Shown here one piece after another: positions 3,614 to 60,887 of a stretch of DNA of 64,000 nucleotides. A program made the position numbers and the translations under genes. The stretch is from Chloroflexota bacterium (lineage in GTDB: Bacteria > Chloroflexota > Anaerolineae > Anaerolineales > UBA11858): contig VGOC01000003.1 in assembly GCA_016865865.1 (NCBI GenBank), positions 24,938-88,937 of the forward strand. The letters are read 5' to 3'. The notes beneath the pieces were generated by a model that saw only the letters and a list, made by a program, of their open reading frames with translations, was not told the DNA's origin and searched no databases. Each line of letters starts with the position of its first letter. Position 1 is the stretch's first letter.

Positions 3614-3714
3614 CGAGTAGAGGATCCGGGACGGCATAGATGGGGGTGCGTATGCATCACGCACCTATATATATGCCGCCCCGCCCCCTCGTTCATGAGT
3701 TTTTCAGTGAACTC
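3614..3714. repeat. Family A palindromic repeat, decayed copy lacking the left outer arm
   Basis: CGAGTAGAGGATCCGGGACGGCATAGATGGGGGTGCG...GCACCTATATATATGCCGCCCCGCCCCCTCGTTCATGAGTTTTTCAGTGAACTC aligns with the copies at 17473, 33176 and 41163. Confidence 0.8.
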
Positions 3715-3756
3715 AATGAAGCATTTTCAGTATCATCTCAATAATTGAAGGAGGGC

Positions 3757-3795
3757 GGGGGGTGTGCGGGCGGCGAAGCCGTCCGCACACCCCCC
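3757..3795 (-). terminator. GC-rich hairpin 14 nt downstream of the URO-D-like stop; possible terminator or stabiliser
   Basis: GGGGGGTGTGCGG...CCGCACACCCCCC forms a 13-bp stem. No clean U-tract follows, so terminator function is uncertain. Confidence 0.35.
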
Positions 3796-3808
3796 ATCTT
3801 CCCCCAAG

Positions 3809-4846
3809 TTATTGAGAAGATACCATTTTCAGCAAAGCAGCGACATTCTCCATAGAAATGTCTGTCATCATCCGGTGTGAAGGAGCAACGATCAGTCCGG
3901 TTTTATTGGGCGCAAGAGTTGCGATACACTTTTCGGTCGCCTCTCTGACCTCGAGGGGGGTTCCATGAGGCAGCACGGTCTGTGTAGAAATCCCCCCGTA
4001 GTAGGCCAGGCGATCCCCGAAGGCGTTCTTCAACCAGGCGTGATCCAACACCTCGGGCTGGACTGGATTGAGAGCGGTCAAACCGATTTCGACCAGGTCT
4101 GGCAGAATCCGAGCGATCTGTCCATCGGAGTGCATCATGACCGGCAGGCCAGCCTCGAGGAAGGGTTGGAATAACCGCTTCAGGCGCGGCTTGATCATCG
4201 TCTGCCACATCGCAGGGGAAAAAAGCAGGTTCGCCTGCGCGCCGTAGTCATCGCCAAAATAGCCGCCGTCTACGCCTAGCCCGATAAAGCGTTCGATCAG
4301 AATCAACTGGATTTCTGTCACCCGCTCCAGGAGTTCTTCGACCCAAATCGGATCGAGGGCCATCTCCAGCAGAAGGGTGTCGAATCCGCGCAACGACCAG
4401 GCTCTCTCGAACAGGGCCCAACCGAAGTTCGGAACGATGAAATGCTGGCCGCCATCGGCTGCGATCTTCGCTGCGGCCTCATCCATCAATTGGGGCTCAT
4501 GCGGATCAGGCCAGGGGAAGGCATCCAGATCTTTCGACTCCGCCAGGGGATTGTAGGCTGCGTAGTAACCCTCCTCCTCCACATCGAAACCGACGCCCCA
4601 CCAATCGTATTTCCATTTGCCATCGGCGCTAACCCTGGCATCGTAGGAAAGATCGACGCGCAGCAGATGATTGCCAAGGAATTCGGGCAAATCATCCAAG
4701 GCAACATCGAAACGGGCAGCCATCTTCTGCCCCATGGCGTGGGTGTAATTGATCTGTGTGGGCAGATGATCCACTGGCTGGTGGGCAAGTGTTCGTTGCA
4801 GGCGTTCTTTCGGTGTCATTGGCGATCGGAGTTCATGTATGCGCAA
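3809..4846 (-). CDS. Uroporphyrinogen decarboxylase (URO-D) family protein, MtaA/CmuA-like methyltransferase fold
   Basis: 345 aa with N-terminus MTPKERLQRTLAHQPVDHLPTQINY. Length is typical of the URO-D family. The start could be M1 or M10. Confidence 0.65.
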   Translation of the reverse strand: MRIHELRSPMTPKERLQRTLAHQPVDHLPTQINYTHAMGQKMAARFDVALDDLPEFLGNHLLRVDLSYDARVSADGKWKYDWWGVGFDVEEEGYYAAYNPLAESKDLDAFPWPDPHEPQLMDEAAAKIAADGGQHFIVPNFGWALFERAWSLRGFDTLLLEMALDPIWVEELLERVTEIQLILIERFIGLGVDGGYFGDDYGAQANLLFSPAMWQTMIKPRLKRLFQPFLEAGLPVMMHSDGQIARILPDLVEIGLTALNPVQPEVLDHAWLKNAFGDRLAYYGGISTQTVLPHGTPLEVREATEKCIATLAPNKTGLIVAPSHRMMTDISMENVAALLKMVSSQ

Positions 4847-4945
4847 GTCATGACTGATGGATGTCTTTACTATAACAATTGGGGCTTCTACTGTCTAGTC
4901 GATTCGAACCTTAAGTCTTTGTGAATCGATTACTGGCGATTACCC

Positions 4946-5580: not shown

Positions 5581-6939
5581 ATGACGCAAACCCTGAACGA
5601 TGCCCTTGTTTATTCGCAGCGTTGGCTGGAGATCATTCACAAGGACGAAGTGTCCGAAGCGGAGGGGAAACAAATCATCGAGGAATCCACGCAAAACTTT
5701 GCTGAATATTTCAACCGCGGCTGGCTGGAGTACCGCAAATCCGTCACCGAGGCTGGCGATTGGGCTGCCACCGAATGGACGGGCCGGGGGGCTGTCTTTC
5801 GGGATGTGCTGGGCCGCGAGTATCTCGACTGCCTGGGCGGGTTCGGCATGATGAACCTGGGCTGGGGGCACCCCGACGTGGCAGCCGCCGTCGCCGCCCA
5901 ACTCAAACGAACCCCTATGCCCAGCCAGGAGTTGATTGACCCGCTGCGCGGCGTGCTGTCGCGGTTGATGGCGCAAATCACGCCCGGCGACCTGAAATAT
6001 AGCTTCTTCGCTGCCAGCGGAACCGAGGCCATCGAGGGCGCAATCAAGCTGGCCAAGATGTACACCCGAAAGAACGGCTTCATCGTGGCGGTGAAAGCCT
6101 TCCACGGCAAAACCATGGGGTCGCTCTCGATGATGGGCAAATCTGATTACCGCGCCCCTGCAGGGATGCTCTACGGCGGGCCGGTCTATCACGCGCCCTT
6201 CGGCGACGCCGAGGCCGTCGAGCGCCAGTTGGATATCTGCCAGAAAGTGGGTGTGGATATCGCCGCGGTGCTGATGGAACCCATCCAGGGCGAGGCCGGG
6301 GTGATCGTCCCGCCGGATGATTTCTGGCCGCGCATTCGTGAGGCTACCCGTCACTACGGTGTGCTGCTGATCGCCGACGAGGTGCAGACCGGCCTCGGGC
6401 GCACCGGTAAACTCTGGGGCGTGGATCACTGGAAGGTCACGCCTGACATCCTGGCGGTTGCCAAATCCCTGGGCGGGGGCGTGATGCCGGTGAGCGCCTT
6501 CTGCTCGACCGAGGAAATCTGGCAGGTGATGATGGAACCTAACCCCTTCATTCACACGACTACCACCGGGGGCGGCGCGCTGGCCTGTTCAGCCGCCATC
6601 GCCTCGATCCACGTCACGCTGCGCGACCGCCTGTGGGAACAGGCAGCCGCCAAAGGGGAGTATCTCATCCCGAAATTGAAAGACCTGGCAGCCAGGTATC
6701 CCCAAATCTACCAGGAAATCACCGGCAAAGGTTTGTTCATCGGCCAGCACTTCCACACCCCGGAACTCGGCTACAAGGTGGCTGCTGGCCTGTTCAAGCG
6801 CGGCGTACTGGTATCTGGCACGCTGACCAGCGCTAAAACCATCCGCATCGAGCCTCCGTTGGTGATTACGTATGAGCAAATAGACGAGCTGCTCGACCGG
6901 CTGGAGGATACGCTGGAAGACGTAAAACGTAATGCGTAA
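5581..6939 (+). CDS. patA: Putrescine aminotransferase (class-III PLP aminotransferase, YgjG/PatA type)
   Basis: Block-by-block resemblance to E. coli PatA: FNRGWLEYRKSVTEAGDWAATEW, YLDCLGGFGMMNLGWGHP, SQELIDPLR, LKYSFFAASGTEAIEGAIKLAK, EPIQGEAGVIVPP, DEVQTGLGRTGK, PDILAVAKSLGGGVMP, HTTTTGG. Confidence 0.85.
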   Translation: MTQTLNDALVYSQRWLEIIHKDEVSEAEGKQIIEESTQNFAEYFNRGWLEYRKSVTEAGDWAATEWTGRGAVFRDVLGREYLDCLGGFGMMNLGWGHPDVAAAVAAQLKRTPMPSQELIDPLRGVLSRLMAQITPGDLKYSFFAASGTEAIEGAIKLAKMYTRKNGFIVAVKAFHGKTMGSLSMMGKSDYRAPAGMLYGGPVYHAPFGDAEAVERQLDICQKVGVDIAAVLMEPIQGEAGVIVPPDDFWPRIREATRHYGVLLIADEVQTGLGRTGKLWGVDHWKVTPDILAVAKSLGGGVMPVSAFCSTEEIWQVMMEPNPFIHTTTTGGGALACSAAIASIHVTLRDRLWEQAAAKGEYLIPKLKDLAARYPQIYQEITGKGLFIGQHFHTPELGYKVAAGLFKRGVLVSGTLTSAKTIRIEPPLVITYEQIDELLDRLEDTLEDVKRNA

Positions 6940-6990
6940 AACGTAATGCGAAAAACGTGAGGTGTAGTTTCACGTTTCACGTTTTACGTT
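6920..6990. repeat. Family F repeat: CGTAAAACGTAATG x2 followed by an inverted ACGTGAAAC block
   Basis: Direct repeat at 6921-6934 and 6935-6948, plus the inverted AAAACGTGA...TCACGTTTCACGTTTT. It contains the patA stop codon. Confidence 0.7.
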
Positions 6991-7030
6991 TCCCTATTCC
7001 CTCATCGTGCCAACCCACGAAAGGTATTCC

Positions 7031-8407
7031 ATGAACATCTTCGATCCTCTTTTTCTCTCCCGGACCCAGAAATCGAAAGCCATGTTCGAGCGCGCCAGCC
7101 GGCGATTGCCAGGAGGGGTAGCTGGCAACGGCAAATTCCTGCGGCCCTATCCAATCTATGTGGGGCAGGCGCAGGGGGGCGAGTTCCTGGATGTGGACGG
7201 CAACCGCTATGTGGATTTACTGATGGGCGCCGGTGTACATATTCTAGGCCATTCGCCCGAGGTGGTGATGAGCGCCGTGGAAGGCCAGTTGCGCAAGGGC
7301 GCGCAGTATTATATGGCCGCCGAAGCTGAGGTGCTCCTGGCCGAGAAGATTTGTTACTTGATGCCGCACGTCGAGATGGTGCGTTTCGTCAACACCGGCT
7401 CGGAGGCCACTCAAATGGCCTTGCGGGCAGCCCGTGCTTATCGCAAACGTGATAAGATCGCCAAATTCGAGGGCAATTTCCACGGCCAGCACGAGGCGGT
7501 GCTGATCAGCACCCTGGGAGCGGAGGGGGAGGCGGACGCGCCATCCCCGCGGATAGATAGCGCGGGGGTGCCCGCGTCGACTCGCCAGGGGGTGCTGGTG
7601 TTGCCCTACAACGACGCCGGGCGCGCTGCGGCCTTGATCGAGGCGCATGCCGACGAGTTGGGCGCGGTGATCCTGGAACCCGTCTCGGCCTTTGGCCTGG
7701 GCGTGGCGGCTGCCGAGCCCGATTTTCTCCAGGCGGTGCGCGACGTTACGGCGAAGCACGGCATCCCGTTGATTTTCGACGAGATTGTGACTAACTTCCG
7801 CCTGGGGTTGGGCGGGGCGACGGAATATTTCGGCGTCACGCCCGATCTAGTCTGCCTGGGCAAGATCGTGGGGGGCGGCTTCGCTATTGGCGGCTATGGC
7901 GGGCGTCGCGAGATCATGGATCAGGTGGTCACGCCGCGCACCGGGCTGTGGAATCTCAGCGAGCAGATTTTCCAATCGGGCTGTTTTTCGGGCAATCCCA
8001 TCTCGATGATGGCCGGGCTGGCCGTGCTCACCGAACTCGAAAAAGGGCAGGTTCACCCGTATATCAACCGAATCGCCGAACGATTACAGATTGGCTTGAC
8101 AGAGATCGGCGAGCGGCTGGGCTTCCCCATCCTGGTCAATCGGGCGGCTTCGTGCTTTCAGGTGCATTTCGGGGTCGAACGTATCCGCAATAAGCGCGAT
8201 CAACTGTGCGCTGACAAGAAGATCGCTGATTTGTTCCACTATGGCCTGCGCGCTCACGGGGTGATGGCAAGCTCACATCCTCTGTTCATTTCCGCTGCCC
8301 ACACCGACCAGCATGTCGGCGTCGTGCTGGAAGCGGCAGAGCGCGTCTTGGAACAGATGCGGGACGCGGACACTTCGACTTCGCTCAGTGCAAGCGAGCG
8401 CGGATGA
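7031..8407 (+). CDS. Class-III PLP aminotransferase (glutamate-1-semialdehyde aminomutase-like family)
   Basis: ORF 7007..8407 trimmed to the ATG at aa 9 (GAAAGG RBS). Motifs LPGGVAGNGKF, VNTGSEATQMALRAARAY, FDEIVTNFRLG, LGKIVGGGF. The last 14 codons lie inside repeat C1. Confidence 0.8.
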   Translation: MNIFDPLFLSRTQKSKAMFERASRRLPGGVAGNGKFLRPYPIYVGQAQGGEFLDVDGNRYVDLLMGAGVHILGHSPEVVMSAVEGQLRKGAQYYMAAEAEVLLAEKICYLMPHVEMVRFVNTGSEATQMALRAARAYRKRDKIAKFEGNFHGQHEAVLISTLGAEGEADAPSPRIDSAGVPASTRQGVLVLPYNDAGRAAALIEAHADELGAVILEPVSAFGLGVAAAEPDFLQAVRDVTAKHGIPLIFDEIVTNFRLGLGGATEYFGVTPDLVCLGKIVGGGFAIGGYGGRREIMDQVVTPRTGLWNLSEQIFQSGCFSGNPISMMAGLAVLTELEKGQVHPYINRIAERLQIGLTEIGERLGFPILVNRAASCFQVHFGVERIRNKRDQLCADKKIADLFHYGLRAHGVMASSHPLFISAAHTDQHVGVVLEAAERVLEQMRDADTSTSLSASERG

Positions 8408-8422
8408 GCGCGGAAAGAAGCG
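8362..8422. repeat. Family C repeat, partial copy (C1)
   Basis: GGACGCGGACACTTCGACTTCGCTCAGTGCAAGCGAGCGCGG is the reverse complement of 9645-9686 with one mismatch. Confidence 0.8.
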
Positions 8423-9590: not shown

Positions 9591-9686
9591 GGACGCGGAT
9601 AAACGCGGATTTACGCGGAAATTCAAAAATGAATCCGCGTTCTTCCGCGCTCGCTTGCACTAAGCGAAGTCGAAGTGTCCGCGTCC
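9591..9686. repeat. Family C repeat, full palindromic copy (C2)
   Basis: GGACGCGGATAAACGCGGATTTACGCGGAA...TTCCGCGCTCGCTTGCACTAAGCGAAGTCGAAGTGTCCGCGTCC with terminal inverted GGACGCGGA/TCCGCGTCC. Confidence 0.8.
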
Positions 9687-10625: not shown

Positions 10626-11503
10626 ACCCGCATCGCCGTTCTCCCCTGGTCATCGTCTCTACCGTGCTGGTGTATTTCTTCCTGTATGCGCCGGTGGTGG
10701 TTTTATTTCTGTTCGCCTTCAATTCCTCGAAGACCAACGTGCTCTTCGAGGGATTCATCACCCAGGTCGGCCCGACGGAAATCGTCTCCGGGAACGTCAT
10801 TCGGAGTCCCTGCGGCGCGTTCCACTGGTTCTGCGAGCTGGCCAGGAATGTCGAAGTGCGCAACGCCGCCCGAAATACGCTGACCATCGCCTTTGTCTCG
10901 ACGATCACTTCGACCATCATCGGCACGCTGGCGGCGATAGCCTTGCAGCGTTACAGCTTCAGGCTGAAGACCTTTTCGGAGGTTTCGCTGTATATCCCCA
11001 TCGTCATCCCGGAGATTGTGATGGGCATCGGCATTCTGGTCTTGTTCAGTCAGTTGTTTACCCTATTGAACAACACCCTCAGCCTGAGCGGCGACAGCCA
11101 GCTTACCCTGGGATTGGGAACCGTCATCGTTTCGCACATCGCCTTCAGCATCCCCTTTGTGACGCTGGTGGTGCGAGCGCGCCTGCACGGTTTCGACAAG
11201 GCGATCGAGGAGGCCTCGATGGATTTGGGCGCTAACGAAATCATCACTTTCTGGCGTGTGACGCTGCCCTCGATTATGCCGGGGGTGCTCTCCGGGGCGC
11301 TGCTAGCTTTCACTCTCTCACTGGATGATTTCGTGATCACTTTCTTCACCACCGGGCCTGGCGCCTCCACGCTGCCGATCTATGTTTATGGGCTGCTGCG
11401 CCGCATCGTCACCCCCCAGGTCAACGCCCTCTCGGCGGTGTGGATTTCGATTGTGCTGGTGGTCGTCTTCTTCACGCAGCGCCTGCAAAGCCGCCAAATG
11501 TAG
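10622..11503 (+). CDS. potC: Spermidine/putrescine ABC transporter permease
   Basis: ATGA overlap with potB. EAA loop [23 protein letters not shown], 293 aa. Confidence 0.85.
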
Positions 11504-11580
11504 GACAGATTGCCAATCTGTCCTACTCCCAGCGCTTGCAAAGCCGCCAGGCGTAGGACAGGTTGGCAACCTGTTCTACA
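11477..11580. repeat. Tandem ~52-bp duplication of the potC 3' end, each unit carrying a hairpin (Family E)
   Basis: CAGCGCCTGCAAAGCCGCCAAATGTAGGACAGATTGCCAATCTGTCCTAC followed by CAGCGCTTGCAAAGCCGCCAGGCGTAGGACAGGTTGGCAACCTGTTCTAC. Hairpins at 11500-11526 and 11553-11579. Confidence 0.85.
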
Positions 11581-13158: not shown

Positions 13159-13169
13159 CAAAACCTTTA

Positions 13170-13235
13170 CCGCAGAGAGCGCTGAATGCGCAGAGAGTTT
13201 GTTATTTTTCTCAGCGTTCTCTTCGTACTCTGCGG
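13170..13235. repeat. Family D palindromic repeat (CCGCAGAG...CTCTGCGG)
   Basis: CCGCAGAGAGCGCTGAATGCGCAGAGAG...CTCTTCGTACTCTGCGG; related copy at 60821-60887. Confidence 0.75.
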
Positions 13236-13265
13236 TTGAATGCACAAAAACGCGAGGAGGCCATT

Positions 13266-17472: not shown

Positions 17473-17593
17473 GAGTTCACTGAAAAAACTTCTGAACGAT
17501 GGGGCGGGGCGGCATATATGGGGGTGCGTGCGCAGCACGCACCCCCATATATGCCGCCCCGCATCCTCTACTCGTAGTTTGTTCAATGGACTC
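17473..17593. repeat. Family A palindromic repeat, full copy
   Basis: GAGTTCACTGAAAAAACT...GGGGCGGGGCGGCATATATGGGGGTGCGTGCGCAGCACGCACCCCCATATATGCCGCCCCG... fills the whole gap between the GH3 stop (17596) and the SIS start (17456). Confidence 0.9.
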
Positions 17594-22385: not shown

Positions 22386-22425
22386 AGTTGCTTGCCTTAG
22401 AGACTGTTTTAAAAGTCGCCAGAAA

Positions 22426-22513
22426 CCACAGAGAAACACAGATGAACACCGATTTTCTTGATGAACAGCCGTCTTTCATCGCCGAAATCCCTTTTATCTG
22501 TGTTCATCTGTGG
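22426..22513. repeat. Family H palindromic repeat (CCACAGA..ACAGATGAACAC / GTGTTCATCTGTGG)
   Basis: Terminal inverted repeats seen directly. Single copy in this window. Confidence 0.65.
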
Positions 22514-22543
22514 CTGATTTGAGTTTTAAAACACTCTCTTAAT

Positions 22544-22592
22544 GAGTTCCCTGAAAAAACTCGTGAATGTCCGTAATTTTTTCAGTGGCCTC
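22544..22592. repeat. Family A arms-only form (no GC-rich core)
   Basis: GAGTTCCCTGAAAAAACTCGTGAA-TGTCCG-TAATTTTTTCAGTGGCCTC. The outer arms match Family A but the ~60-nt core is absent. Confidence 0.7.
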
Positions 22593-27587: not shown

Positions 27588-27626
27588 GTAACTGCTCAGC
27601 CATCGAACGGATTGGTGTGTAGTTAC
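27588..27626. repeat. Family B arm-only fragment
   Basis: GTAACTGCTCAGCCATCGAACGGATT...AGTTAC matches the Family B outer arm without the CCCGAAAAAAGGG core. Confidence 0.65.
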
Positions 27627-30504: not shown

Positions 30505-30549
30505 AATGATCCTCCGGTAATATCTCATACAAAAATTGAATTGCTTTGA

Positions 30550-30634
30550 CCCCCCTTTCATCCCCCCATTTTCGCCCAGATAGCTCCTGGTTGAGCAGCA
30601 ATCCCGTGAGCGAAAATGGGGGGACAGAGGGGGG
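30550..30634. repeat. Family G palindromic repeat (CCCCCCATTTTCGC...GCGAAAATGGGGGG)
   Basis: Related copies at 44050-44130 and a partial copy at 41331-41360. Confidence 0.75.
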
Positions 30635-30775
30635 TAGATTGATATGTGTCATTGTCAGGCTACTTATCCATTGAGCGGACTCACGAGCGGGGATTTTATC
30701 ATTTTTCCCGAGATCTGTCATTGCTTATTTTCCTGGTGGGTACGCAAACAGCGTCATTGGTGTATAATTCCCCTC

Positions 30776-33163
30776 ATGCTCAGTAGACTCCGCCGCAGCC
30801 TGATTCCAAAAACGAAGAGCCTCTGGTTGATCATCTCTGCCATTATCATCCTGGCTATATTATTCCCAATTGTGCAGACCGTTGTCCTGATAAGAGACCA
30901 GGAGGCGAATACCCCCCAGACGCCTGAAGAACACTATGAAGCTGGCCTGAAGTATCTGGATGACGAAGAATATAGTTACGCCTATTACTCTCGGTTCGCT
31001 CATTTTCAGGCGAGATTTTGAAATATGGGCTGAAAATAAGGCAAAATGCTTTCTTCATTACAAATTTGACCTTTCCAGGCCAGAGATTTCTTTCAGTAAT
31101 GCCACTGGTGTTGCTTTCCTCCAGAGCGCGATGAGGTAATACCGCCATATATGGGCATGGGCTTGAGTTTCGTGCCATATATAGGGGTATCGGAATCTTT
31201 ATAACCGCTCACAAAATGAGCGAACGGAGAGTATTATGAGTTCAATCAGGCAATCAAAGGAAATCCAGATTATCTCGAGGCATACTTCGAGCTTGGTAAG
31301 ATCTATTTGATGGCAGGGGAGCCGAGCGCTGCCAGCGCTGCTTTTTCTTTTATCGTTCAACGAGATGCTGAACACAGCGAGGCCTGGTATTATCGCGCTC
31401 TATCCTACGTCGCCATCGCAGACCTGATTACGCAGGCCCAAACGGAATCTGAGCCAGGCGCCGAAATCGCCACGATCATCGAGCCTCCTCCTTTGTTCGA
31501 TCTTACCGATATCCTGACTGTAAACATCCATGAAGAAGTACTTGATTTGGAAGAGGGGGGTTCGGAGGAAGAATTACCGGCATTGACTGGGGAGCAAGTG
31601 GATGTGAGCCAGCGAGTGGATGATCCGATATCCCAGGCGATCGATGATCTGACCCAGGCCATCGAAGTCCGCCCCGATTACGAAGAAGCCATACTCGGAC
31701 GCGCCTATCTGCTCGTTGATACTCGTAACTATTACCGGGCAATAGACGATCTCGATCGCCTGATCGAAATGGATCCGGAGAAGGTCATCGCGCTCACCTT
31801 GCGCGCCCAGGCCAGGTATGCTCTGAAGAAATACGCCGACGCGACGAAGGACCTCGACAGACTTCTGGCGCTTGGGGAAGAAAGCTTGGAGATATATTTC
31901 TACCGTGGGAGTTGTTTCTTTCATCTGGGCGAATTCGAAAAAGCTGTTGACGCCTGGACACATGCCATTGCGCTGGAGCCGAATATTACGGATATCATCT
32001 TGAACAGGGCTTATTCGTATCATATGCTCGAAGATTATGAAAACGCCCTGGCTGATTATCAGGCTGTGTTGGCCGTTGAACCCAACTCGCCTTCTATTTA
32101 CAAGGATATGGGGGATATCCATATACAGTTAGAGGAGTTCGAGCATGCTGTAGCTGATTACACCCAGGCGATCATATTGGATCCTCAGAATATCGAATTT
32201 CTCTACAATCGCGGAATGATCTATCTCGAGTTGGAAGATTACGAAGAAGCGATAGCAGATTTACAGACTGTCCTCGAGATTGACCCGGACACCCCGGGTA
32301 TTTATAACAGGTTGGGAGACGCCTATTATCTTGCTGGCGAATATCGCCAGGCGGTGTACCGCTATTTGCTTGCAATCGAACAAGATCCTAGCGATATGAT
32401 CGCCTACTATAATATCGGCAGAGCGCATGTTAGTTTAGAAAATTTCGAAACCGCCAAGGGCTATTTCGATCAGGCTATCGAGCTGAACCCCGAATTTTCC
32501 GAGGCCCTGGATGGCAGTGCAGAGATGGCGCTTCGTCTGGGCGACTACCAGACCGCGGTAGATAATTATTCGACTCTCTTGGAATTAGAACCCGATTATG
32601 GCATGGCTTATTACAATCGGGGGTTGGCCTATTATCAACTGGACGAGTTCGAGAAAGCCATTGCCGATCAATCCCGCGTCATCGAAAACGATCCGGAATT
32701 CCTGGATGCCTACTATCAGCGAGGCCTGGCTTACTTCCAACAAGACCAATTTGAGCCCGCCATCGGGGATTGGGCCTATGTGATCGAGAAATATCCAGAG
32801 TATGCCCAGGCATACTACAGCACAGGATTAGCCTATTATTTCCAGGAAGATTATCAGACCGCGATTGACTACTTCGGCCAGACCATCGAAGTTGATCCTG
32901 ATTATGGCTATGCCTACTACTTCCGCGGCAATGTGCATGCCGCTCTTCAGGATTACGATCCCGCCATCGAGGATTATACGATGGCGATCAGCCTGGATAC
33001 AGAGTTGGGGCAATCCTATTACAACCGAGGAGTGTCCTATTTCCAGAGGGGCTATCAGAGCAAAGCGCTCGAGGATTTCAAGATGGTCCTGGAAGTCAGC
33101 GAGGATGCTAAACTTCTCGAAAGTGCAGAAGAAATATTACGATCCTTTGGCATTATGCCGTAA
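30776..33163 (+). pseudogene. Membrane-anchored multi-TPR protein split by a 246-bp MITE insertion
   Basis: The N-terminal piece (MLSRLRRS..., TM anchor, first half-TPR) stops at 31021 inside the insert. The frame resumes at 31234 (YEFNQAIKGNPDYLEAYFELGKIYLMAGEPS...) and continues as about 17 TPR units to 33163. Both pieces share the same frame modulo 3. Confidence 0.8.
30986..31233. mobile_element. Non-autonomous MITE with 19-bp terminal inverted repeats and a TA target-site duplication
   Basis: TA-CTCTCGGTTCGCTCATTTT...AAAATGAGCGAACGGAGAG-TA, with one TIR mismatch. No ORF inside. It carries an internal CATATATGG-type hairpin (ATACCGCCATATATGGGCA...TGCCATATATAGGGGTAT). Confidence 0.85.
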
Positions 33164-33175
33164 TCTGATCCCAAG

Positions 33176-33275: not shown

Positions 33276-33313
33276 AACAATGATATGGGTGCGTTTCATT
33301 CCAGTTGAAGGTT

Positions 33314-33367: not shown

Positions 33368-33398
33368 ACTCTTTCATCTCGTTTGAAACACGCCCCAA

Positions 33399-33944: not shown

Positions 33945-36611
33945 ATGCCTGCATCTCGTTGGAATTCTGACTTGATGGAATTGCTTTCGTGGCTCGGCGC
34001 GGAGGACTTGAAAATAGATGATTTTCTCCTGCACCCAATCGTGACTCGCGTTGGTGGAGAGGAAGATAGTCCTAAAGGGGAGATCGAAGTCCTGCAAGAG
34101 GGGGATCAAATTCCCAGCATGCTGCCGATCTTGCCGCTGCGCGGTTTGGTGGTTTACCCCGAGACAGCGGTGCCATTGACCATTGGTCAGCCTCGTTCTA
34201 TTCACCTGATTGACGATGTCGTTTCCGAAGAAAGCCGGCTGATCGGCCTGGTGGCCTCTCGCAAACCAGAGTTGGAATCCCCTGATCCCGAAAACCTATT
34301 CGAGGTAGGCACCGTCGCCATTGTGCATCGTATGTTGCGCGCCCCCGATGGCACGATCCGCCTCTTGGTGCAGGGGATTGCGCGTTTCAGACTCATCGAA
34401 TACGTTCAAATTGATCCCTACCTCAAAGCCAGGGTGGAATTGACCCCTGAGATCGAAGAGGAAGGTCTGGAAGTAGAGGCCATGGCTCGCAACGCCCGCG
34501 ACCAGTTCGAGCGCATCGCCAGTATGATCACCTCGCTGCCGCGCGAGCTGGTCGAATCGGTCTTGCTGTTGGATGATCCTCTGCAAACCGTCTATACCAT
34601 TGCTAACTTCCAGCGGATCGAACTCGAGGATGCTCAGGCGCTCCTGGAGTTGGATTCGGTCTCCCAAAAATTACAAAAACTGATCTCGATTTTAGCCCGC
34701 GAAGTCGAAGTCTTGGAACTTGGACAAAAGATACAGAAAGAAGCGCGTTCGGAGATCGAAAAAGTTCAACGTGAGTATTACTTGCGTGAACAGCTCAAGG
34801 CCATCCAGCGCGAACTTGGGGAGGGGGATGAGCAGGTCATCGAGGTGGATGAGTTTCGCGCCAAGATCGAAGCAGCCCACATGACCGAGGAAGCCGATAA
34901 GCAGGCCCGCCGGGAGGTGGATCGCATGTCGCGATTGCCCACCGCGGCGGCGGAATATGGGGTCATCCGCACCTATCTGGATTGGTTGGTCTCTCTGCCC
35001 TGGTCGGTTTCGACTCAAGACAATCTGGACATTGCCCATGCCCGTACTGTGCTGGATGAAGATCATTATGGGCTTGAAGATATCAAAGAGCGCATACTGG
35101 AATTCCTGGCTGTGCGCAAATTACGGCAGGAGCGCGTAGAAGAATTCACCGCCGAGGACAACAAGTACGATGATCGAATTCGCCGCTTACGCGAGGGTGT
35201 GATCCTGTGTTTTGCAGGACCTCCGGGTGTGGGCAAAACTTCCCTCGGGCGTTCCATCGCCCGCTCCCTGGGGCGTGAGTTCATCCGCATCTCTTTGGGC
35301 GGCGTGCGCGACGAGGCCGAAATTCGCGGTCATCGCCGCACGTATATTGGCGCATTGCCGGGGCGCATCCTGCAGGCCTTGAGGCGGGTAGAAACACACA
35401 ACCCGGTCTTCATGCTCGATGAGATAGATAAACTCTCCCAGGGCTTCCAGGGCGATCCGGCCTCAGCCCTTTTGGAAGTTCTGGACCCGGAGCAAAATGT
35501 GGAGTTTCGCGATCATTACCTGGAAGTGGCTTTCGATCTCTCGGAGGTGATGTTCATCACCACAGCCAATCGCCTGGATACCATCCCCCAGCCGTTGCTC
35601 GACCGCATGGAGACCATCCGGCTCTCCGGATACACGGAAGGCGAGAAGAAACATATCGCCAAGGGATATCTGATCCCGCGCCAGCTACGCGAGAACAGCC
35701 TGCGGGAAAGCGAGGTCCGCTTCACGGATGAGAGTCTGGACGAGATCATCCGCTATTACACCCGTGAGGCTGGCGTCCGCAATCTGGAGCGCGAGATTGG
35801 GGCGGTGTGTCGCAAGGTGGTCACGCGCATCGCCGAGGGCAAGGGGAATGGCGTCGTCGAGATCAACCCTGAGCGGATCCACGAGTACCTGGGGAGGCCA
35901 AAATTCCGCGATTTGGAAGAGATCGCCGAACGAACTTCCCTGCCCGGCGTAGCAACTGGATTGGCCTGGACCCCTACGGGCGGTGACGTGTTATTCATCG
36001 AAGCGACCCGCATGCCGGGCGGAAAGGGCTTCCAACTCACCGGGTCGTTGGGCGATGTGATGAAGGAATCTGCCAAGGCGGCGCTTTCGTTCGTGAGATC
36101 GCAGGCCAAGAAATTAGGCCTGGAGGAGAACTTCTATTCGGAGGCGGATTTCCATTTGCACATCCCGGCTGGGGCGCAGCCAAAGGATGGCCCTTCTGCC
36201 GGCATCACCATGGCTACCGCGCTGGTATCGCTGATTTCCGGGCGGCCGGTTCGTCCTGATGTGGGCATGACGGGAGAGATCACCCTCCGGGGTAAGGTGA
36301 TGCCCGTTGGCGGCGTCAAAGAAAAGGTTTTGGCTGCTCACCGGGCAGGACTCAAAAAAGTCTTACTGCCCAAGCGCAATGAAGATGATTTGGAAGACCT
36401 GCCCGAGGAAGTCCGCCAGAGGATACAATTCATCTTTCTGGATACGGTTGACGATGCGATCGAGGTTGCTTTGGAGCCTCTGCCAAAACCTAAGAAGAAA
36501 AGGCAAACCCAAAAGAATCCTGCTCCCCAAAAAGGTAAAAGAGCAGTAGATTTAGTATCAGTGGATGTAACTACTCAGCCAAACGGAGAAATTCCCGAAA
36601 AAAGGGTGTGA
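33945..36611 (+). CDS. lon: ATP-dependent Lon protease (LonA)
   Basis: LON N-domain [15 protein letters not shown], Walker [10 protein letters not shown], protease motif [16 protein letters not shown]. The last 14 codons and the stop lie inside repeat B1. Confidence 0.95.
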
Positions 36612-36678
36612 GCAGGGGGCTACGCCCCCTGCTCACACCCTTTTTTCGGGTAAATCCGTTCGATGGCTGAGCAGTTAC
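36567..36678. repeat. Family B palindromic repeat, full copy
   Basis: GTAACTACTCAGCCAAACGGAGAAATTCCCGAAAAAAGGGTGTGAGCAGGGGGCTACGCCCCCTGCTCACACCCTTTTTTCGGGTAAATCCGTTCGATGGCTGAGCAGTTAC. Confidence 0.9.
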
Positions 36679-36741
36679 TCAGTGGATTACGAAAAAGGAA
36701 GTACTGAGCAGAGATCCTGATCCTGGTATGCGAAGTTGCGT

Positions 36742-38950: not shown

Positions 38951-39490
38951 ATGGCCCTGCGCGTTGCCATCCTTACCGTGTCTGATCGTTCTGCGCGAGG
39001 TGAGCGACCGGATACATCAGGCCCGGCGTTGAAGGCGAAAGTGGAAGCGCAAGGATGGAGCGTCTTACAGGAAGATATCGTTCCGGACGATTTGCTGGTT
39101 TTGAGGGATACCCTCTCCCAATGGGCTGACGGACGCTGTTTCGACGTGATCCTGACCACCGGGGGGACGGGATTCGCCCCCAGGGATGTCACCCCCGAGG
39201 CCACCCAGACCGTGATTCACCGAGCCGCGCCTGGGCTGACCGAAGCCATGCGGGCTGAAAGCCTGAAGATCACCCCACATGCCATGCTCTCCCGGGGCGT
39301 TTCCGGCATCCGTGACCGCACCCTGATCATCAATCTGCCCGGCAGCCCCAAGGCCGCCCTTGAAAATCTGGAGGTAGTCATCCCCGTACTGCCCCACGCC
39401 GTGCAACTCCTGCGGGAAGATGCTGATGCGGAAACCGGACATCAATTCGCTCAGCAGAGAAAAAATACAGAGTTCACTGATACTCAGTAG
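38951..39490 (+). CDS. mogA: Molybdopterin adenylyltransferase MogA/MoaB family
   Basis: VAILTVSDRSARGERPDTSGP...ILTTGGTGFAPRDVTPEAT...INLPGSPKA. It starts 2 nt after the upstream stop. Confidence 0.85.
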   Translation: MALRVAILTVSDRSARGERPDTSGPALKAKVEAQGWSVLQEDIVPDDLLVLRDTLSQWADGRCFDVILTTGGTGFAPRDVTPEATQTVIHRAAPGLTEAMRAESLKITPHAMLSRGVSGIRDRTLIINLPGSPKAALENLEVVIPVLPHAVQLLREDADAETGHQFAQQRKNTEFTDTQ

Positions 39491-39565
39491 TTCACGAAAA
39501 CGATCAGGAGCCCGTCCCCGGGCGACCCGCAGACGGGTCTCGGATCATTTTTCGTGAAGTACTGA
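39485..39565. repeat. Family I palindromic repeat (CAGTAGTTCACGAAAA...TTTTCGTGAAGTACTG)
   Basis: Arms flank the inner hairpin GATCAGGAGCCCGTC...GACGGGTCTCGGATC. An arm-like miniature lies at 36679-36709. It covers the mogA stop. Confidence 0.7.
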
Positions 39566-41162: not shown

Positions 41163-41292
41163 GAGTCCACTGAGTCCACTGCAAAAACTACGAGTAGAGG
41201 ATTCGGGGCGGCATATATGGGGGTGCGTGCGCAGCACGCACCCCCATATATGCCGCCCCGCCCCCTCGTTCAGGAGTTTTTTCAGTGAACTC
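41163..41292. repeat. Family A palindromic repeat, full copy with a duplicated left arm (GAGTCCACT x2)
   Basis: GAGTCCACTGAGTCCACTGCAAAAACTACGAGTAGAGGATTCGGGGCGGCATATATGGGGGTGCGTGCGCAGCACGCACCCCCATATATGCCGCCCCGCCCCCTCGTTCAGGAGTTTTTTCAGTGAACTC. Confidence 0.9.
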
Positions 41293-41371
41293 ACATATGT
41301 CACATTTCAACGAATTTCGGGGTTCTTATAGGCGAAAATGGGAGGGCCGAGGGGGGGGTACAGCATTGATC

Positions 41372-43968: not shown

Positions 43969-44049
43969 GCGAAGCGAATGTGCATGATCCCTCGATCAAA
44001 AGCCCGTCCTCGGGCGCCCCGAGGACGGGGCTGTGGATCGTTCACGCCG

Positions 44050-44880: not shown

Positions 44881-44992
44881 GTAACTATTCAGCCAAACGG
44901 AGAAATTCCCGAAAAAAGGGTGTGCGCAGGGGGCTACGCCCCCTGCGCACACCCTTTTTTCGGGTAAATCCGTTCGATGGCTGAGCAGTTAC
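44881..44992. repeat. Family B palindromic repeat, full copy
   Basis: Nearly identical to 36567-36678 (core GTGTGCGCAGGGGGCTACGCCCCCTGCGCACAC). Confidence 0.9.
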
Positions 44993-51668: not shown

Positions 51669-51838
51669 AATATGCTCGCTTGAAAGAGATGAGTTTATGT
51701 GGTAATATTTTGCGGCTTGGTAGGTAATTATAATACGTATGTCGGTTGAAAGCTCAATCCACGAAGGTGGATTTCGTGCGCCAGCCTCGAATTCATTCGA
51801 TGGTTGAGCAATTACACAATTCGAAAGGAATTGATGAA

Positions 51839-57783: not shown

Positions 57784-57897
57784 GTAACTGCTCAGTCATC
57801 GAACGGATTAGCCCGAAAAAAGGGTGTGCGTGGGGGTGCTGCGCACCCCCACGCACACCCTTTTTTCGGGAATTTCTCCGTTTGGCTGAGCAGTTAC
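57784..57897. repeat. Family B palindromic repeat, full copy, inverted orientation
   Basis: GTAACTGCTCAGTCATCGAACGGATTAGCCCGAAAAAAGGGTGTGCGTGGGGGTGCTGCGCACCCCCACGCACACCCTTTTTTCGGGAATTTCTCCGTTTGGCTGAGCAGTTAC. Confidence 0.9.
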
Positions 57898-58842: not shown

Positions 58843-59534
58843 TGTGCCGAAAAGTAGCAATCGTTCAATCGAATTATATTCCCTGGAAGGGTTATTTTGA
58901 TCTGATCAATCTCGTTGATGAATTCGTTCTGTACGATGACGTGCAATACACGAAGCGGGATTGGCGAAATCGAAATCGTATCAAGACCCCTGATGGTCTT
59001 GCCTGGTTGACTATTCCTGTTGTAGTTAAAGGAAAATATCATCAGAAAATCAAAGATGTCCTCGTCAGCGATACTCGATGGAATATCAGGCATTGGAAAT
59101 CTATTTGCCAGAATTATGCCCAGGCGCGTTTTTTCGATGCCACTAAGATATTTCTAGAAGAGCTATATACGACTTGCGATAGAATCGATCTTAGTGGCAT
59201 CAATTACCATTTTCTGGCAGGCATTTGTAATTATCTTGGAATCACGACGAAGCTTTCCTGGTCCATGGACTACGATTTGGCCGAGGGGAAAACAGAACGC
59301 TTGATCGGGATTTGTAAACAGGCGAATGCCAGCGAATATATCTCCGGCCCATCAGCCAGGCAATATATAAATGAAGGCGAATTCCAAAAAGAGGGGATAG
59401 GACTAACTTACATTGATTATTCGGGTTATCCGGTATACGATCAGTTATACCCACCTTTCGAGCATGGCGTCAGTATTGTAGATCTTCTACTCAATACAGG
59501 CCCTGATGCGAAAGCGTTTATGAAGAGTTTTTAG
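58842..59534 (+). CDS. WbqC-like family protein (unknown role in glycan biosynthesis)
   Basis: VAIVQSNYIPWKGYFDLI...YDDVQYTKRDWRNRNRI is characteristic of the WbqC family. TAATG overlap with rfbA. Confidence 0.75.
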   Translation: MCRKVAIVQSNYIPWKGYFDLINLVDEFVLYDDVQYTKRDWRNRNRIKTPDGLAWLTIPVVVKGKYHQKIKDVLVSDTRWNIRHWKSICQNYAQARFFDATKIFLEELYTTCDRIDLSGINYHFLAGICNYLGITTKLSWSMDYDLAEGKTERLIGICKQANASEYISGPSARQYINEGEFQKEGIGLTYIDYSGYPVYDQLYPPFEHGVSIVDLLLNTGPDAKAFMKSF

Positions 59535-59562
59535 GTGAATTTAAGGATCATCGAGGTACGAC

Positions 59563-60699
59563 GTGTCCACCATTTCGTTCAACCGCCCAACCCTGGTTGG
59601 CAAAGAGTTCGAATACATCCAACAAGCCATAGACAATTTGCATCTATCGGGAAATGGGCCATTTACGAAAGAATGCCAGCGATTGTTGGAACAACGGATC
59701 GGCTGCGCTAAAGCATTATTGACTCATTCTTGTACAGCCGCATTAGAAATGGCGGCGATTTTGGCGGATATTCGACCGGGGGATGAAATCATCATGCCGT
59801 CGTTTACCTTTGTTTCCACGGCAAATGCTTTCGTGCTGCGGGGTGGAGCGCCGGTATTCGTCGAGGTCCGACCGGATACACTGAATATTGATGTTAAAGC
59901 CATCGAAAAAGCAATCACATCGAGGACGAAGGCCATTGTCCCGGTTCATTATGCTGGGGTTGCCTCCGATATGGACGAGCTTTTAGAATTAGCAGATCGG
60001 CATGGCTTGTTGGTCATCGAAGACGCTGCCCAGGGGATCAATGCTTCCTACAAGGAGAGACCATTAGGTAGCCTGGGGCATTTGGCGGCCTTGAGTTTTC
60101 ATGAAACAAAGAACGTGATCTCGGGCGAGGGGGGCGCATTGCTAATCAATGATGAGCGCTTCGTCGAACGCGCGGAGATTATATGGGAAAAAGGCACCAA
60201 TCGTGCGAATTTCTTCCGTGGTCAGGTGGATAAGTATACCTGGGTGGATATTGGCTCGTCATACTTGCCCAGTGAGATCCTGGCTGCTTTTCTCTTCGCT
60301 CAGCTCGAAGAAGTACAGCCTATTACCCGTGACCGTCTAAAAACCTGGAATCAGTATCACCGCGCATTCGAAGCATTGGAGGCAGCCGGAAAGCTTCGTC
60401 GCCCCATCATTCCGGCCTATTGTGAGCACAATGCCCATATTTATTATTTGTTGTTGCCGGATATCACTATCCGGACAGCTTTGATAAACACGTTGAAAAG
60501 TTTTGGAGTGAACGCCATATTCCATTATGTGCCTCTCCATTCGTCTCCGGCAGGAAGGAAATATGGGCGGGCGAGTGAAGATTTATCATTCACCCAGGAT
60601 ATCAGTGATCGGCTGGTGCGATTGCCGCTATGGATAGACATGTCTGATGAGGAGATAAACCGGGTTGTCGAGGCGGTCTATGCCGCGTTGGATTCTTGA
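59563..60699 (+). CDS. DegT/DnrJ/EryC1-family dTDP-4-keto-6-deoxyhexose 4-aminotransferase (WecE/RffA-like)
   Basis: FNRPTLVGKEFEYI, LLTHSCTAALEMAA, IMPSFTFVSTANAF, VPVHYAGV, SFHETKN (PLP lysine) and EKGTNRANFFRGQVDKYTW closely parallel E. coli WecE. Confidence 0.85.
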   Translation: MSTISFNRPTLVGKEFEYIQQAIDNLHLSGNGPFTKECQRLLEQRIGCAKALLTHSCTAALEMAAILADIRPGDEIIMPSFTFVSTANAFVLRGGAPVFVEVRPDTLNIDVKAIEKAITSRTKAIVPVHYAGVASDMDELLELADRHGLLVIEDAAQGINASYKERPLGSLGHLAALSFHETKNVISGEGGALLINDERFVERAEIIWEKGTNRANFFRGQVDKYTWVDIGSSYLPSEILAAFLFAQLEEVQPITRDRLKTWNQYHRAFEALEAAGKLRRPIIPAYCEHNAHIYYLLLPDITIRTALINTLKSFGVNAIFHYVPLHSSPAGRKYGRASEDLSFTQDISDRLVRLPLWIDMSDEEINRVVEAVYAALDS

Positions 60700-60820
60700 T
60701 GTTCGCTACTTGCGTCATTTCCCTTTTGGCTGCTCCTTTCCGATGTTCGATCAGCGGAATGAACTTCGCCTTTCGGAGTATTACCGTCATAGATTTGCCT
60801 CGTTCACGCAGATTTTCGAA

Positions 60821-60887
60821 CCGCAGAGTGCGCGGAGATCGCAGATTTTGCCTGATATTCTCTCACCGACCTCCGCACACTCTGCGG
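60821..60887. repeat. Family D palindromic repeat
   Basis: CCGCAGAGTGCGCGGAG...CTCCGCACACTCTGCGG, 17-bp arms with one mismatch. Confidence 0.75.

Follow-up and report, generated by a model that had tools for sequence, protein, structure and literature searches.

The palindromic repeats of the window, the whole 64,000-nucleotide stretch of DNA analysed here, are very probably MITEs: they end in terminal inverted repeats, lie between target-site duplications and have multiplied in an uncultured bacterium of the Chloroflexi living in a lake. Families A, B, H, I, J and K are MITEs rather than REP or BIME elements, because their arms are terminal inverted repeats accompanied by flanking duplications whose length is specific to each family. 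Such repeats and duplications are the defining anatomy of MITEs. The preliminary description of this DNA had rightly recognised a GC-rich hairpin core with an arm at either end but had missed the duplications, and the view that no MITE family is involved was wrong. Given this anatomy, the claim of novelty is reduced: the families are new, but elements of this kind are well known. Two details are unusual: the GC-rich cores form hairpins with near-perfect pairing, which in B and J resemble terminators, and the hairpin loop is often inverted.

Terminal inverted repeats and target-site duplications

A metagenome scan gave 72 loci besides the window, for a total non-redundant sample of 536 kb that was selected for family A by its core motif. 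The repeats far exceed chance: nine occurrences of the A-arm motif were counted in the window where 0.07 would be expected, and four of the B-arm motif where 0 would be. All repeat sequences quoted earlier are where they were said to be, and about 27 elements or fragments were counted in the window. Many intergenic gaps longer than 60 bp are occupied (about 20 of about 28, on an approximate gene map), so that 'nearly every gap' was somewhat overstated. The original list was itself incomplete, lacking an A-mini (2354-2397), the K element (3730-3823) and a B2 fragment (51741-51816). The elements extend beyond the window, with 64 A sites in this A-chosen sample, 40 B, 9 H and 12 I sites and 4 copies of D. 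There are 88 strong hairpins in the 536 kb against 0 in shuffles, and every element tested folds much better than its shuffles (z from -3.6 to -15.8). The A and B copies in the window are as follows, with strand where assigned.

17473..17593: complete A MITE, 121 bp; ends GAGTTCACTG...CAATGGACTC; 6-bp duplication CATCAT at 17467-17472 and 17594-17599; situated after the stop codon of GH3 and before the start codon of the SIS gene
41172..41293: complete A MITE; no recognisable duplication; preceded by an additional 9-nt copy of the left tip, GAGTCCACT, at 41163-41171
33174..33276: A copy whose left end is short by about 30 nt; begins 11 nt past the TPR-gene stop codon
3614..3714: decayed, left-truncated A copy; several core-stem mismatches
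22544..22592: A-mini of 49 bp, made up of the two A ends without a core; CTTAAT on each side
2354..2397: second A-mini, 44 bp; flanks ATGATA and ATGATT (5/6 match)
36567..36678, + strand: B MITE, 112 bp; ends GTAACTACTCAGCC...GGCTGAGCAGTTAC; 9-bp duplication TCAGTGGAT
44881..44992, + strand: B MITE; 8-bp duplication CTTGGATT
57784..57897, - strand: B MITE in opposite orientation; 8-bp duplication AATTGATT
27588..27626: B-mini, 39 bp; intact 8-bp duplication AGTTTTTC
51741..51816, - strand: one-ended B2 fragment

Copies of A, near-identical to one another across the sample, are 121 bp at full length and flanked by duplications of 6-7 bp, which are perfect in 27 of 40 complete copies and carry one mismatch in another 8. 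B elements measure 112-117 bp and duplicate 8, rarely 9, bp; the duplication is perfect in 26 of 32 complete copies (25 of 8 bp, one of 9 bp) and has a single mismatch in four. When the comparison was shifted by 15 nt as a control, neither family gave a match; the duplicated sequence differs at almost every A and B site, and the duplications are rich in A+T (80% for A and 69% for B, against 45% across the sample). The B element at 36567 holds a 27-bp perfect stem between A6 and T6 and supplies the final 14 codons and the stop of lon. B2 has inverted ends as in B around a different interior, and its complete copy in locus L076 spans 130 bp with the 8-bp duplication ATTTCTAT. The 27588 element, formerly listed as an arm-only B, runs from the long B arm through six core nucleotides (GGTGTG) to the final 7 nt of the opposite arm, and is an internal-deletion derivative.

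33287..33395: J MITE; ends GGGTGCGTTTCA...TGAAACACGCCC; 9-bp duplication CAATGATAT
3730..3823: K MITE, 94 bp; ends GTATCATCTCAATAA...TTATTGAGAAGATAC; 8-bp duplication CATTTTCA
22400..22538: H MITE, 139 bp; ends GAGACTGTTTTAAAAG...CTTTTAAAACACTCTC; 3-bp duplication TTA
39485..39564: I element; ends CAGTAGTTCACGAAAAC...TTTTCGTGAAGTACTG; probable 5-bp duplication
36680..36707: I-mini remnant, 28 nt (CAGTGGATTACGAAAAAGGAAGTACTGA); left tip invaded by B at 36567
43992..44042: hairpin (GCCCGTCCTCGGGCGCCCCGAGGACGGGGC) related to the I core but standing alone, without I arms

What had been taken for a core-only B at 33314-33367 is the B-like core (CCCGAAAAAAGGGTG...) of J, which has its own ends and a 9-bp duplication in both of its two copies. 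K has a GC-rich hairpin core and an 8-bp duplication in three of three copies. H, first placed at 22426, is real and multi-copy but longer than described; TTA or TAA matches at both flanks in all six two-flank copies, as direct and not inverted repeats. For I the 5-bp duplication is probable, being perfect in three of six copies elsewhere and matching at three of five bases at 39485, whereas the supposed I copy at 36679 is in part the duplicated target of B, joined to the 28-nt remnant. Nested and adjacent insertions are common, and the A-mini at 22544 inserted later than its H neighbour, because its left CTTAAT contains the last base of H together with the TTA duplication.

Each element is 40-150 bp of non-coding DNA with terminal inverted repeats for arms and, usually, a GC-rich near-perfect hairpin for an interior. 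Copies would have been inserted by transposases acting in trans, which would cut AT-rich targets with a family-specific stagger, repair then leaving the flanking direct repeats. Because duplication lengths vary by family (6-7 bp in A, 8 and rarely 9 in B and B2, 8 in K, 9 in J, about 5 in I and 3 in H), several unrelated transposases are probably involved. Since the window and the 536-kb sample yielded neither an autonomous insertion sequence with matching ends nor a transposase gene, we infer mobilisation in trans from the anatomy of the elements. The duplications, the inverted ends, the numbers of copies and their absence from relatives are direct observations, whereas which transposases acted and how transcription might be affected is likewise inferred. 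Arm-only forms arise by internal deletion, elements land inside and next to one another, and deletions between adjoining elements apparently produce chimeras.

Local repeats, relatives and distribution

The other repeats of the window are these.

60763..60926: D, roughly 150 bp long, an older repeat
13168..13238: palindrome resembling D and containing GCAGAG sub-repeats; 75% identity to 60858-60889 over 32 nt
9591..9686: C palindrome with CGCGGA sub-repeats
8362..8414: C half copy, overlapping the 3' end of an aminotransferase ORF
11470..11579: E, a pair of GTAG-headed hairpins of REP type (GTAGGACAGATTGCCAATCTGTCCTAC), repeating every 53 nt
6915..6998: F palindrome with AACGTAA sub-repeats; one partial relative in the sample (L075)
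30542..30640: G, GGCGAAAATGGGGGGAnnnnGGGGGG in two inverted copies
41332-41356 and 44105-44129: single copies of G
30986..31233: 248-bp element with inverted ends of about 22 nt

C, E, F and G, proposed as families in their own right, are local or weakly supported. C amounts to a local pair flanking an ABC ATPase gene, in which the right 53 nt of 9591..9686 form a 94% inverted repeat with 8362-8414, plus a single weak copy; G is a 25-nt motif with four copies in the window and one elsewhere in the sample. E is a GTAG-type REP doublet, and this is its sole site in 536 kb. The four copies of D are diverged (70-79% identity), and no resolvable duplication was found for C, D, F or G in the window or the sample. 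The inverted ends of the proposed MITE at 30986 are present, yet the element lacks family support because it is single-copy in the 536 kb.

Comparison of orthologous gaps, suggested earlier as a check, showed the elements to be missing at two sites in relatives at 88% Lon identity. Between lon and the response regulator gene the relatives have 29-37 bp, against 124 bp in the window (B at 36567), and the gap between the two ACAD genes is 88 bp and element-free in L089, against 224 bp in the window (A at 41172). None of the six duplication-bearing families (A, B, H, I, J and K) has a copy in 55 kb of relatives. At 88% protein identity the nearest of these are too diverged for base-by-base alignment of empty sites, and the comparison does not resolve insertion junctions.

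The source population is an uncultured lake Chloroflexota (Anaerolineales-like) recovered only from a single JGI metagenome series (Ga01941xx). The 21-mer of the A core is nearly confined to one sample series of one collection and gave only chance-level matches in 185,579 species genomes; judged by this distribution, family A is lineage-restricted. Metagenome contigs terminate at elements. No insertion polymorphism was seen at 39.6-61.3 kb of the window, because the contigs fetched there are 99.97-100% identical to it.

Hairpin cores and alternative origins

The interiors are GC-rich, perfect hairpins of 26-28 bp inside AT-flanked elements. Cores and arms had been described as separable, and this holds insofar as B and B2 share arms around different insides and B and J have similar cores within different arms. 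The B and J cores agree at all of their first 15 nt and have a GCAGGGGG block in common, despite unrelated ends and duplications of 8 versus 9 bp, and GGGGGTG(C/T)GCG-type stems recur in A, B, J and K. It is conceivable, if improbable, that the core is an independent module, moved or copied between arm backbones by nested insertion into arm-only elements, as first proposed, or else kept perfect and flipped by hairpin-templated correction; full elements would then combine two sorts of mobile DNA. Hairpins that share this design but lack arms speak for this, as does the 3-nt loop, which is often flipped when arms are oriented alike (in A, GCA 19 and TGC 9; in B, TAC 7 and GTA 4, TGC 7 and GCA 5), even among copies with identical arms. 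So do the B inner stems, with at least six variants, each fully compensated, and the lower variability of cores than of arms. However, no direct repeats border the core within elements, which leaves no trace of an insertion event. A arms with an intact duplication hold the A core or nothing and never a foreign core; the two A/B chimeras both lack duplications and look like deletions between adjoining elements, not mobile recombinants. Arm-only forms do exist but are rare (the 536 kb contain five of A, compared with about 50 full copies), and B-mini has residual core bases; both observations point to internal deletion, not to a free-standing arm module as once proposed. Loop flips and compensated variants can come from recombination or template switching in a long palindrome together with master-copy amplification. 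The low core variability is partly an ascertainment effect: the A core is more conserved than the A inverted ends, the opposite of the usual MITE pattern, in a contrast inflated by core-motif sampling.

The cores of B and J, with an A-tract, a GC stem and a T-tract, would on transcription probably behave like terminators in both directions. The genome's stand-alone hairpins have the same design and mostly lie directly after stop codons; four of five arm-less B-core-like hairpins are 3-21 nt downstream of one. Together with the strong conservation of the cores, this resemblance to bidirectional intrinsic terminators could suggest structures selected by the host, as terminators, to stabilise mRNA or to bind proteins, and multiplied by gene conversion and duplication, not transposition. 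We consider this very unlikely: neither conversion nor selection explains an AT-rich repeat of fixed length that differs from site to site, related species have no elements at conserved gene junctions, and one copy has rewritten the Lon C-terminus. Gene-pair orientations around the elements match the background, and because B shows no preference for convergent pairs, nothing indicates that it was selected as a terminator. Host selection as the spreading mechanism is thus contradicted by the site-specific duplications, the empty sites and the background-like distribution; a secondary function may still exist.

Equally improbable is an origin as REP/REPIN or IS200/IS605-derived palindromes, which a RAYT or another HUH tyrosine transposase would have dispersed in the form of single-stranded hairpins. 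HUH-mediated single-strand transposition (IS200/IS605, RAYT) yields neither long inverted ends nor site-specific duplications of fixed length, which A, B, B2, H, J and K have; the duplications refute such an origin for A, B, H, J and K. The elements are abundant, extragenic and palindromic, as this origin would have it, but they measure 90-140 bp, not 20-40 bp, and have neither a GTAG nor a CGTC head, and the search for a RAYT gene, once suggested, revealed none in the window or the 536-kb sample. REPs with GTAG heads are known in Chloroflexi (PMC3733652), and hairpins of the E type with compensated stems are present in the relatives L090 and L091, yet E is limited to its one site in the 536 kb. 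MITE amplification is the reading we retain for the duplication-bearing families.

Relation to known elements

For B and B2, with ends beginning GTAA and 8-9-bp duplications, the IS66 family is a candidate parent, and for H, with ends beginning GAG and a 3-bp duplication of TNA type, the IS1031-type members of the IS5 family are candidates, since these traits are characteristic of the two groups; neither a transposase gene nor a full insertion sequence with B or H ends turned up in the window or the 536-kb sample. We know of no major insertion-sequence family that we could confidently name for the 6-7-bp duplication of A.

REP, REPIN and BIME elements resemble those of the window in being abundant extragenic palindromes, some in doublets, with compensated stem variants, and E fits the GTAG-headed type (PMC3733652). 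REPs, however, are 20-40 nt long with a GTAG or CGTC head and without long inverted ends or target duplications, a description that A, B, H, J and K do not fit.

Prokaryotic MITEs combine direct repeats, inverted ends and a core, form stable stem-loops and target AT-rich intergenic DNA (PMC10969869). The Chloroflexota families share this pattern of short, non-coding, dispersed copies with target duplications and long stem-loops with such elements as Correia (Neisseria), RUP (Streptococcus pneumoniae), QMITE1/2 (Coxiella) and Nezha (cyanobacteria). Their sequences have no Rfam, plasmid or viral matches and so are unrelated to any family covered by these searches. They differ also in their GC-rich, perfect hairpin interiors and in that eight or more families, which between them have five or more duplication lengths, occur side by side. 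Terminator-like SPRITE elements and element-into-element insertion have been described among prokaryotic MITEs; the SPRITE is a small interspersed repeat with a body like an intrinsic terminator, and pneumococcal repeats bunch and insert into one another (PMC10969869). The tract-stem-tract cores of B and J and the common nesting recall the SPRITE, but the host phylum is another, there is no sequence relation, and the predicted terminator-like hairpin of B and J is enclosed by classic inverted ends with 8-9-bp duplications.

Inverted ends and target-site duplications

The repeats are real: the sequences on which the preliminary description built its families are present where it placed them, and a repeat search of the window recovered family A at 3614, 17472, 33174 and 41171 and family B at 36566, 44878 and 57784 (inverted), all with long perfect central stems. 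With up to three mismatches allowed, shuffled sequence predicts 0.07 occurrences of a 17-mer from the A arm and 0 of a 24-mer from the B arm; the window has nine and four. Folded as single strands, A reaches -49.7 kcal/mol (z -12.5 versus shuffles) and B -53 kcal/mol (z -15.8), with the remaining elements at z -3.6 to -10.7. Across the whole window, Rfam 15 gave no match at its gathering threshold and a tRNA scan found no tRNA genes.

Alignment of the unique A copies defines a 121-bp element. Its ends are directly flanked by a short direct repeat whose sequence changes from one site to the next. The arms are terminal inverted repeats, and the same anatomy recurs in the other families listed here.

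Families with inverted ends and the duplications that flank them
A: 121 bp; ends GAGTYCACTG...CAGTGRACTC; duplication of 6 bp (19 copies) or 7 bp (8 copies); perfect in 27 of 40, one mismatch in 8 of 40
B: 112-117 bp; ends GTAACTRCTCAGCC...GGCTGAGYAGTTAC; duplication of 8 bp (25 copies) or 9 bp (1 copy); perfect in 26 of 32, one mismatch in 4 of 32; the end GTAACTGCTCAGCC is paired with the 8-bp duplication
H: 22400-22538, 139 bp; ends GAGACTGTTTTAAAAG...CTTTTAAAACACTCTC; duplication of 3 bp, TTA/TAA (TWA); 6 of 6 copies with both flanks
I: 39485-39564, about 80 bp; ends CAGTAGTTCACGAAAAC...TTTTCGTGAAGTACTG; duplication probably of 5 bp; perfect in 3 of 6
J: 33287-33395; ends GGGTGCGTTTCA...TGAAACACGCCC; duplication of 9 bp; 2 of 2 copies
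K: 3730-3823, 94 bp, absent from the preliminary description; ends GTATCATCTCAATAA...TTATTGAGAAGATAC; duplication of 8 bp; 3 of 3 copies

A control comparison shifted 15 nt outward gave 0 matches for A and B alike. The duplicated targets are 80% A+T for A and 69% A+T for B, against 45% A+T in the 536-kb sample of the host population described below. The triplets flanking H are direct rather than inverted repeats, which makes them duplications lying outside the inverted ends. A further element, B2 (130 bp, metagenome locus L076), has the ends of B around another interior and an 8-bp duplication (ATTTCTAT); a one-ended fragment of it lies at 51741-51816 in the window. The A copy at 41172 is one of the few complete copies with no target duplication; its left tip is present twice in direct orientation, the extra 9 nt (GAGTCCACT) lying at 41163-41171.

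Miniature inverted-repeat elements (MITEs) are by definition small and non-coding, end in inverted repeats, are flanked by a duplication of constant length that is specific to each site, and occur in many dispersed copies (PMC10969869). The elements here are 39-150 bp long, within the limit of about 300 bp for MITEs, and have no coding capacity, the open reading frames (ORFs) that cross them being run-ons of adjacent genes or unsupported; they have conserved inverted ends and site-variable duplications of fixed length, and they are dispersed in many copies. The duplication-bearing families are therefore new MITE families in an under-studied phylum, not a new kind of element, and a literature search found no description of MITEs in the phylum Chloroflexota. 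The architecture and nesting first proposed for these repeats hold in part; the first reading of their class does not, since inverted ends with target-site duplications are MITE anatomy.

The main alternative is that these are REP, REPIN or BIME sequences. REPs are 20-40 nt long and carry a GTAG/CGTC head, which A, B, H, I, J and K lack at lengths of 80-140 nt; A, B, B2, H, J and K carry inverted ends and target-site duplications, and REPs have neither. Single-strand transposition of REPs by HUH or RAYT-type enzymes is not known to leave target-site duplications, so that a REP or BIME reading fails for the duplication-bearing families. Each element is moreover one long palindrome with unique ends, whereas a BIME would be an array of REP units that alternate in orientation and are joined by linker motifs. 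Pfam scans of the window genes found no Y1 transposase (RAYT). Among the listed families tested, a GTAG head is limited to family E, a REP-type hairpin doublet at 11500-11579 that is the sole such site in 536 kb. The type recurs in two related loci (L090 18216-18279 and L091 13350-13413), where the stems (GTAAGTCAGATTGCCAATCTGACC...) are compensated and the loops, TTGCCAA and TTGGCAA, mirror each other. GTAG REPs are known from Chloroflexi (PMC3733652), and the E doublets hint at a REP/RAYT system in this lineage. The TAG of the first E head is the stop codon of a permease gene.

Distribution in the host population and its relatives

A search of 185,579 species genomes, one per species, with a 21-mer from the A core turned up no more than 10 matches, all attributable to chance (Phyllobacterium and others), from which we conclude that the source genome is absent from that set. 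The same 21-nt motif marked 72 loci in JGI metagenomes, nearly all from one sample series (Ga01941xx), and window DNA is found on contigs of this series at 99.97-100% identity. An NCBI entry labelled 'MAG: Chloroflexi bacterium' has a Lon protein identical to that of the window, and the nearest named relatives are Anaerolineales. The window genes serve housekeeping and sugar utilisation (ABC transporters, glycosidases, aldehyde:ferredoxin oxidoreductase, Lon, RecG, FakA, DegV, Asp23). The A and B ends had no match among viral contigs, nor had whole elements among plasmids.

Together, the window and the metagenome loci form a non-redundant sample of 535,780 bp of the host population, chosen through the A-core motif, within which we found no second, diverged strain. 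It holds at least 64 A sites, in a sample selected on A, and at least 40 B sites; these counts are lower bounds because the metagenome scan was not exhaustive, having missed Ga0194126_10001553 despite an exact match (L001, about 20013-20134). The A copies are nearly identical among themselves. Some contigs of the series terminate exactly at repeats, as expected of multi-copy DNA; contig ends fall inside or beside B and H in L003 (window 44965 and 57748), at both ends of L047 and at the start of L065. The MITEs fragment assemblies of the host population, and so explain assembly break points of this lake Chloroflexi population.

Three related loci (L089, L090 and L091, at 88% Lon identity) keep the gene order HSP20-Lon-response regulator-PHP-MoCF, and their 55 kb contain no copy of the six duplication-bearing families A, B and H-K. 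The gap between lon and the response regulator gene is 29-37 bp in the relatives and 124 bp in the window, where it holds a 112-bp B and its duplication, and the gap in an acyl-CoA dehydrogenase pair is 88 bp in the relatives against 224 bp with A in the window; the flanks of the relatives are too diverged for these to serve as base-exact empty sites at both junctions. Within the population we saw no insertion polymorphism, L001-L006 (window 39.6-61.3 kb) being 99.97-100% identical to the window. The elements clearly represent a recent burst, specific to this lineage, in which at least eight MITE families took part.

The lon ORF (33945-36611) extends into a B MITE, which supplies its last 14 residues and stop codon (36567-36611); with the MITE and one copy of the duplication removed, the ORF would end ...VDYEKGSTEQRS, running into an I-type remnant. 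Lon is 878 aa here against 866-872 aa in the relatives. The elements thus flag spurious ORFs and altered gene ends, such as this MITE-encoded Lon C-terminus. Two other features stand near the repeats. Palindromes of the type GTTATCG...CGATAAC, at 3455-3480 and 3590-3613 upstream of a LacI-family regulator gene (2396-3433, minus strand), look like LacI-type operators, not repeats. Beside one B copy, a 1-kb low-GC stretch (44662-45670) holds only two small ORFs (68 and 74 aa) with no Pfam match, and may represent a small insert of accessory or toxin-antitoxin-like character.

Variants, nesting and hairpin cores

The preliminary description suggested that arms and cores are separable modules, because full forms occur alongside forms with only one or the other. 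What it took for a core-only B (33314-33367) belongs instead to family J, in which a core similar to that of B sits between different ends flanked by a 9-bp duplication. The arm-only B at 27588-27626 does have an arm and an intact 8-bp duplication, but it is not free of core: the long arm is followed by GGTGTG, retained from the core, and then by the terminal 7 nt of the opposite arm, so that it is an internal deletion. Arm-only A forms are rare, 5 against about 50 full copies in 536 kb. Two lie in the window, at 22544-22592 and 2354-2397, both with duplications, and the duplication of the first (CTTAAT) includes the last base of H and the TTA that flanks H, which places this insertion later than that of H.

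Nesting is seen at several sites: a B has entered the tip of the I remnant that lies at 36680, another an A arm in L040, and in L023 a solo A arm adjoins an A element. In L079 (1978-2211), two B copies stand in tandem with the 8-bp GTTTTTTC before, between and after them, which could reflect double insertion into one target or unequal exchange. Two A/B chimeras (L030 and L041) are joined within the common GGGGGTGCG...CGCACCCCC centre and lack duplications; we read them as deletions between neighbouring elements. Nowhere do A arms with an intact duplication enclose a foreign core. The architecture is modular in the ordinary sense of MITEs, with no sign of cores that move independently. At three loci (L022 7111, L018 1434 and L048 3180), a solo A-type arm is followed by GCAGAG/GCGGAG sub-repeats like those of palindrome family D (ACCGCRGAG...TACGCRGAG), which may represent a further family using A-like ends.

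The hairpin interiors are unusually perfect and GC-rich, and in two families they resemble terminators. The B and J cores consist of CCCG-AAAAAA, a GC-rich stem of 17-18 bp, a 3-nt loop and TTTTTT-CGGG, the predicted design of a bidirectional intrinsic terminator. A simple scanner missed these sites, the likely cause being additional pairing of the A-run with the T-run. The sample also contains five hairpins of this design without arms, four of them 3-21 nt past stop codons, and these look like a putative native terminator type of the genome. Had B been selected as a terminator, it might favour certain gene-pair orientations; its placement is biased neither toward gene ends nor toward convergent pairs, and the orientations match background, in a count whose 'inside ORF' class is unreliable owing to a crude ORF caller. 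Given this lack of preference for convergent pairs, a terminator role is plausible but unproven. If the hairpins do terminate or insulate transcription, the spread of these MITEs would have rewired operon boundaries genome-wide.

The cores also vary in a distinctive way. The inner stem of B has at least six variants, each fully compensated. With arms oriented alike, the 3-nt loop of A reads GCA in 19 copies and TGC in 9, and that of B reads TAC in 7 and GTA in 4, or TGC in 7 and GCA in 5; opposite orientations occur even among copies with identical arms, for example L050 and L051. Both orientations against a constant arm point to frequent, recurrent inversion or template switching inside the palindrome. 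In A, the minor-allele fraction is 0.004-0.017 in the core, 0.04-0.06 in the inverted ends and 0.13 in the spacers, a contrast inflated by sampling through a core motif. A bolder reading, which we consider improbable, is that the cores are a semi-autonomous module that derives from host bidirectional terminators, was captured independently by the A, B, J and K backbones, each moved by a different transposase as their duplications of 6-7, 8, 9 and 8 bp would have it, and is kept perfect and often flipped by hairpin-templated correction or inversion. Were it true, the genome would in effect use transposons as vehicles to spread and homogenise hairpins of terminator type.

Remaining palindromes, mobilisation and known elements

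The other listed palindromes are more heterogeneous. Family D (about 150 bp) is real but old, with four copies at 70-79% identity and no resolvable duplication; a role as a conserved 5' leader (an RBS-like GGAGG, then ATG) can be dismissed, a real ORF following only one of the four copies. Family C comprises two local 53-nt repeats in inverted orientation, 94% complementary to each other, and a weak third copy. The pair (8362-8414 and 9634-9686) brackets an ABC-transporter ATPase gene (8438-9547) with no duplication seen, and is a composite-like or inversion-prone arrangement. Family F has one partial relative in the sample, and the element at 30986-31233 is single-copy there. Family G is a 25-nt G-rich motif, GGCGAAAATGGGGGGAnnnnGGGGGG, with four copies in the window and one in the other 470 kb.

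Sites of the G motif
30542-30576: inverted
30610-30634
41332-41356
44105-44129
L029, about 3860: metagenome locus

Its placement is inconsistent, two sites lying upstream of starts and two facing the 3' ends of opposite-strand genes.

The MITE copies would have been integrated by transposases encoded elsewhere, which presumably bind the inverted ends and cut AT-rich DNA with a stagger of 3, 5, 6-7, 8 or 9 bp; as duplication lengths and ends differ between families, several such enzymes are likely to be involved. We found no transposase gene or full-length partner in the window, the 536-kb sample, viral contigs or plasmids. Insertion sequences often fail to assemble in metagenomes. Pairing of A or B ends over distances of 400-4000 bp likewise gave none flanked by a duplication that matched. 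Two ORFs flanked by inverted repeats came up as candidates, for an ABC ATPase and a LiaF-like protein, neither of which is a transposase; as for paralogous stretches, the longest two in the sample belong to GroEL and sigma-70 genes. The combination of GTAA ends and 8-9-bp duplications, which we take to be typical of IS66, is no more than a lead to the parent of B, as are GAG ends with a 3-bp TNA duplication, presumably typical of the IS1031 group of the IS5 family, for that of H.

The use of these elements lies in annotation and population genomics, where they are ready markers for strain tracking and for dating insertions, with their terminator-like and possibly self-homogenising hairpin cores as a side question. 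As a class of element, they show nothing beyond what MITEs already show, and a terminator role has a precedent in the pneumococcal SPRITE element (PMC10969869).
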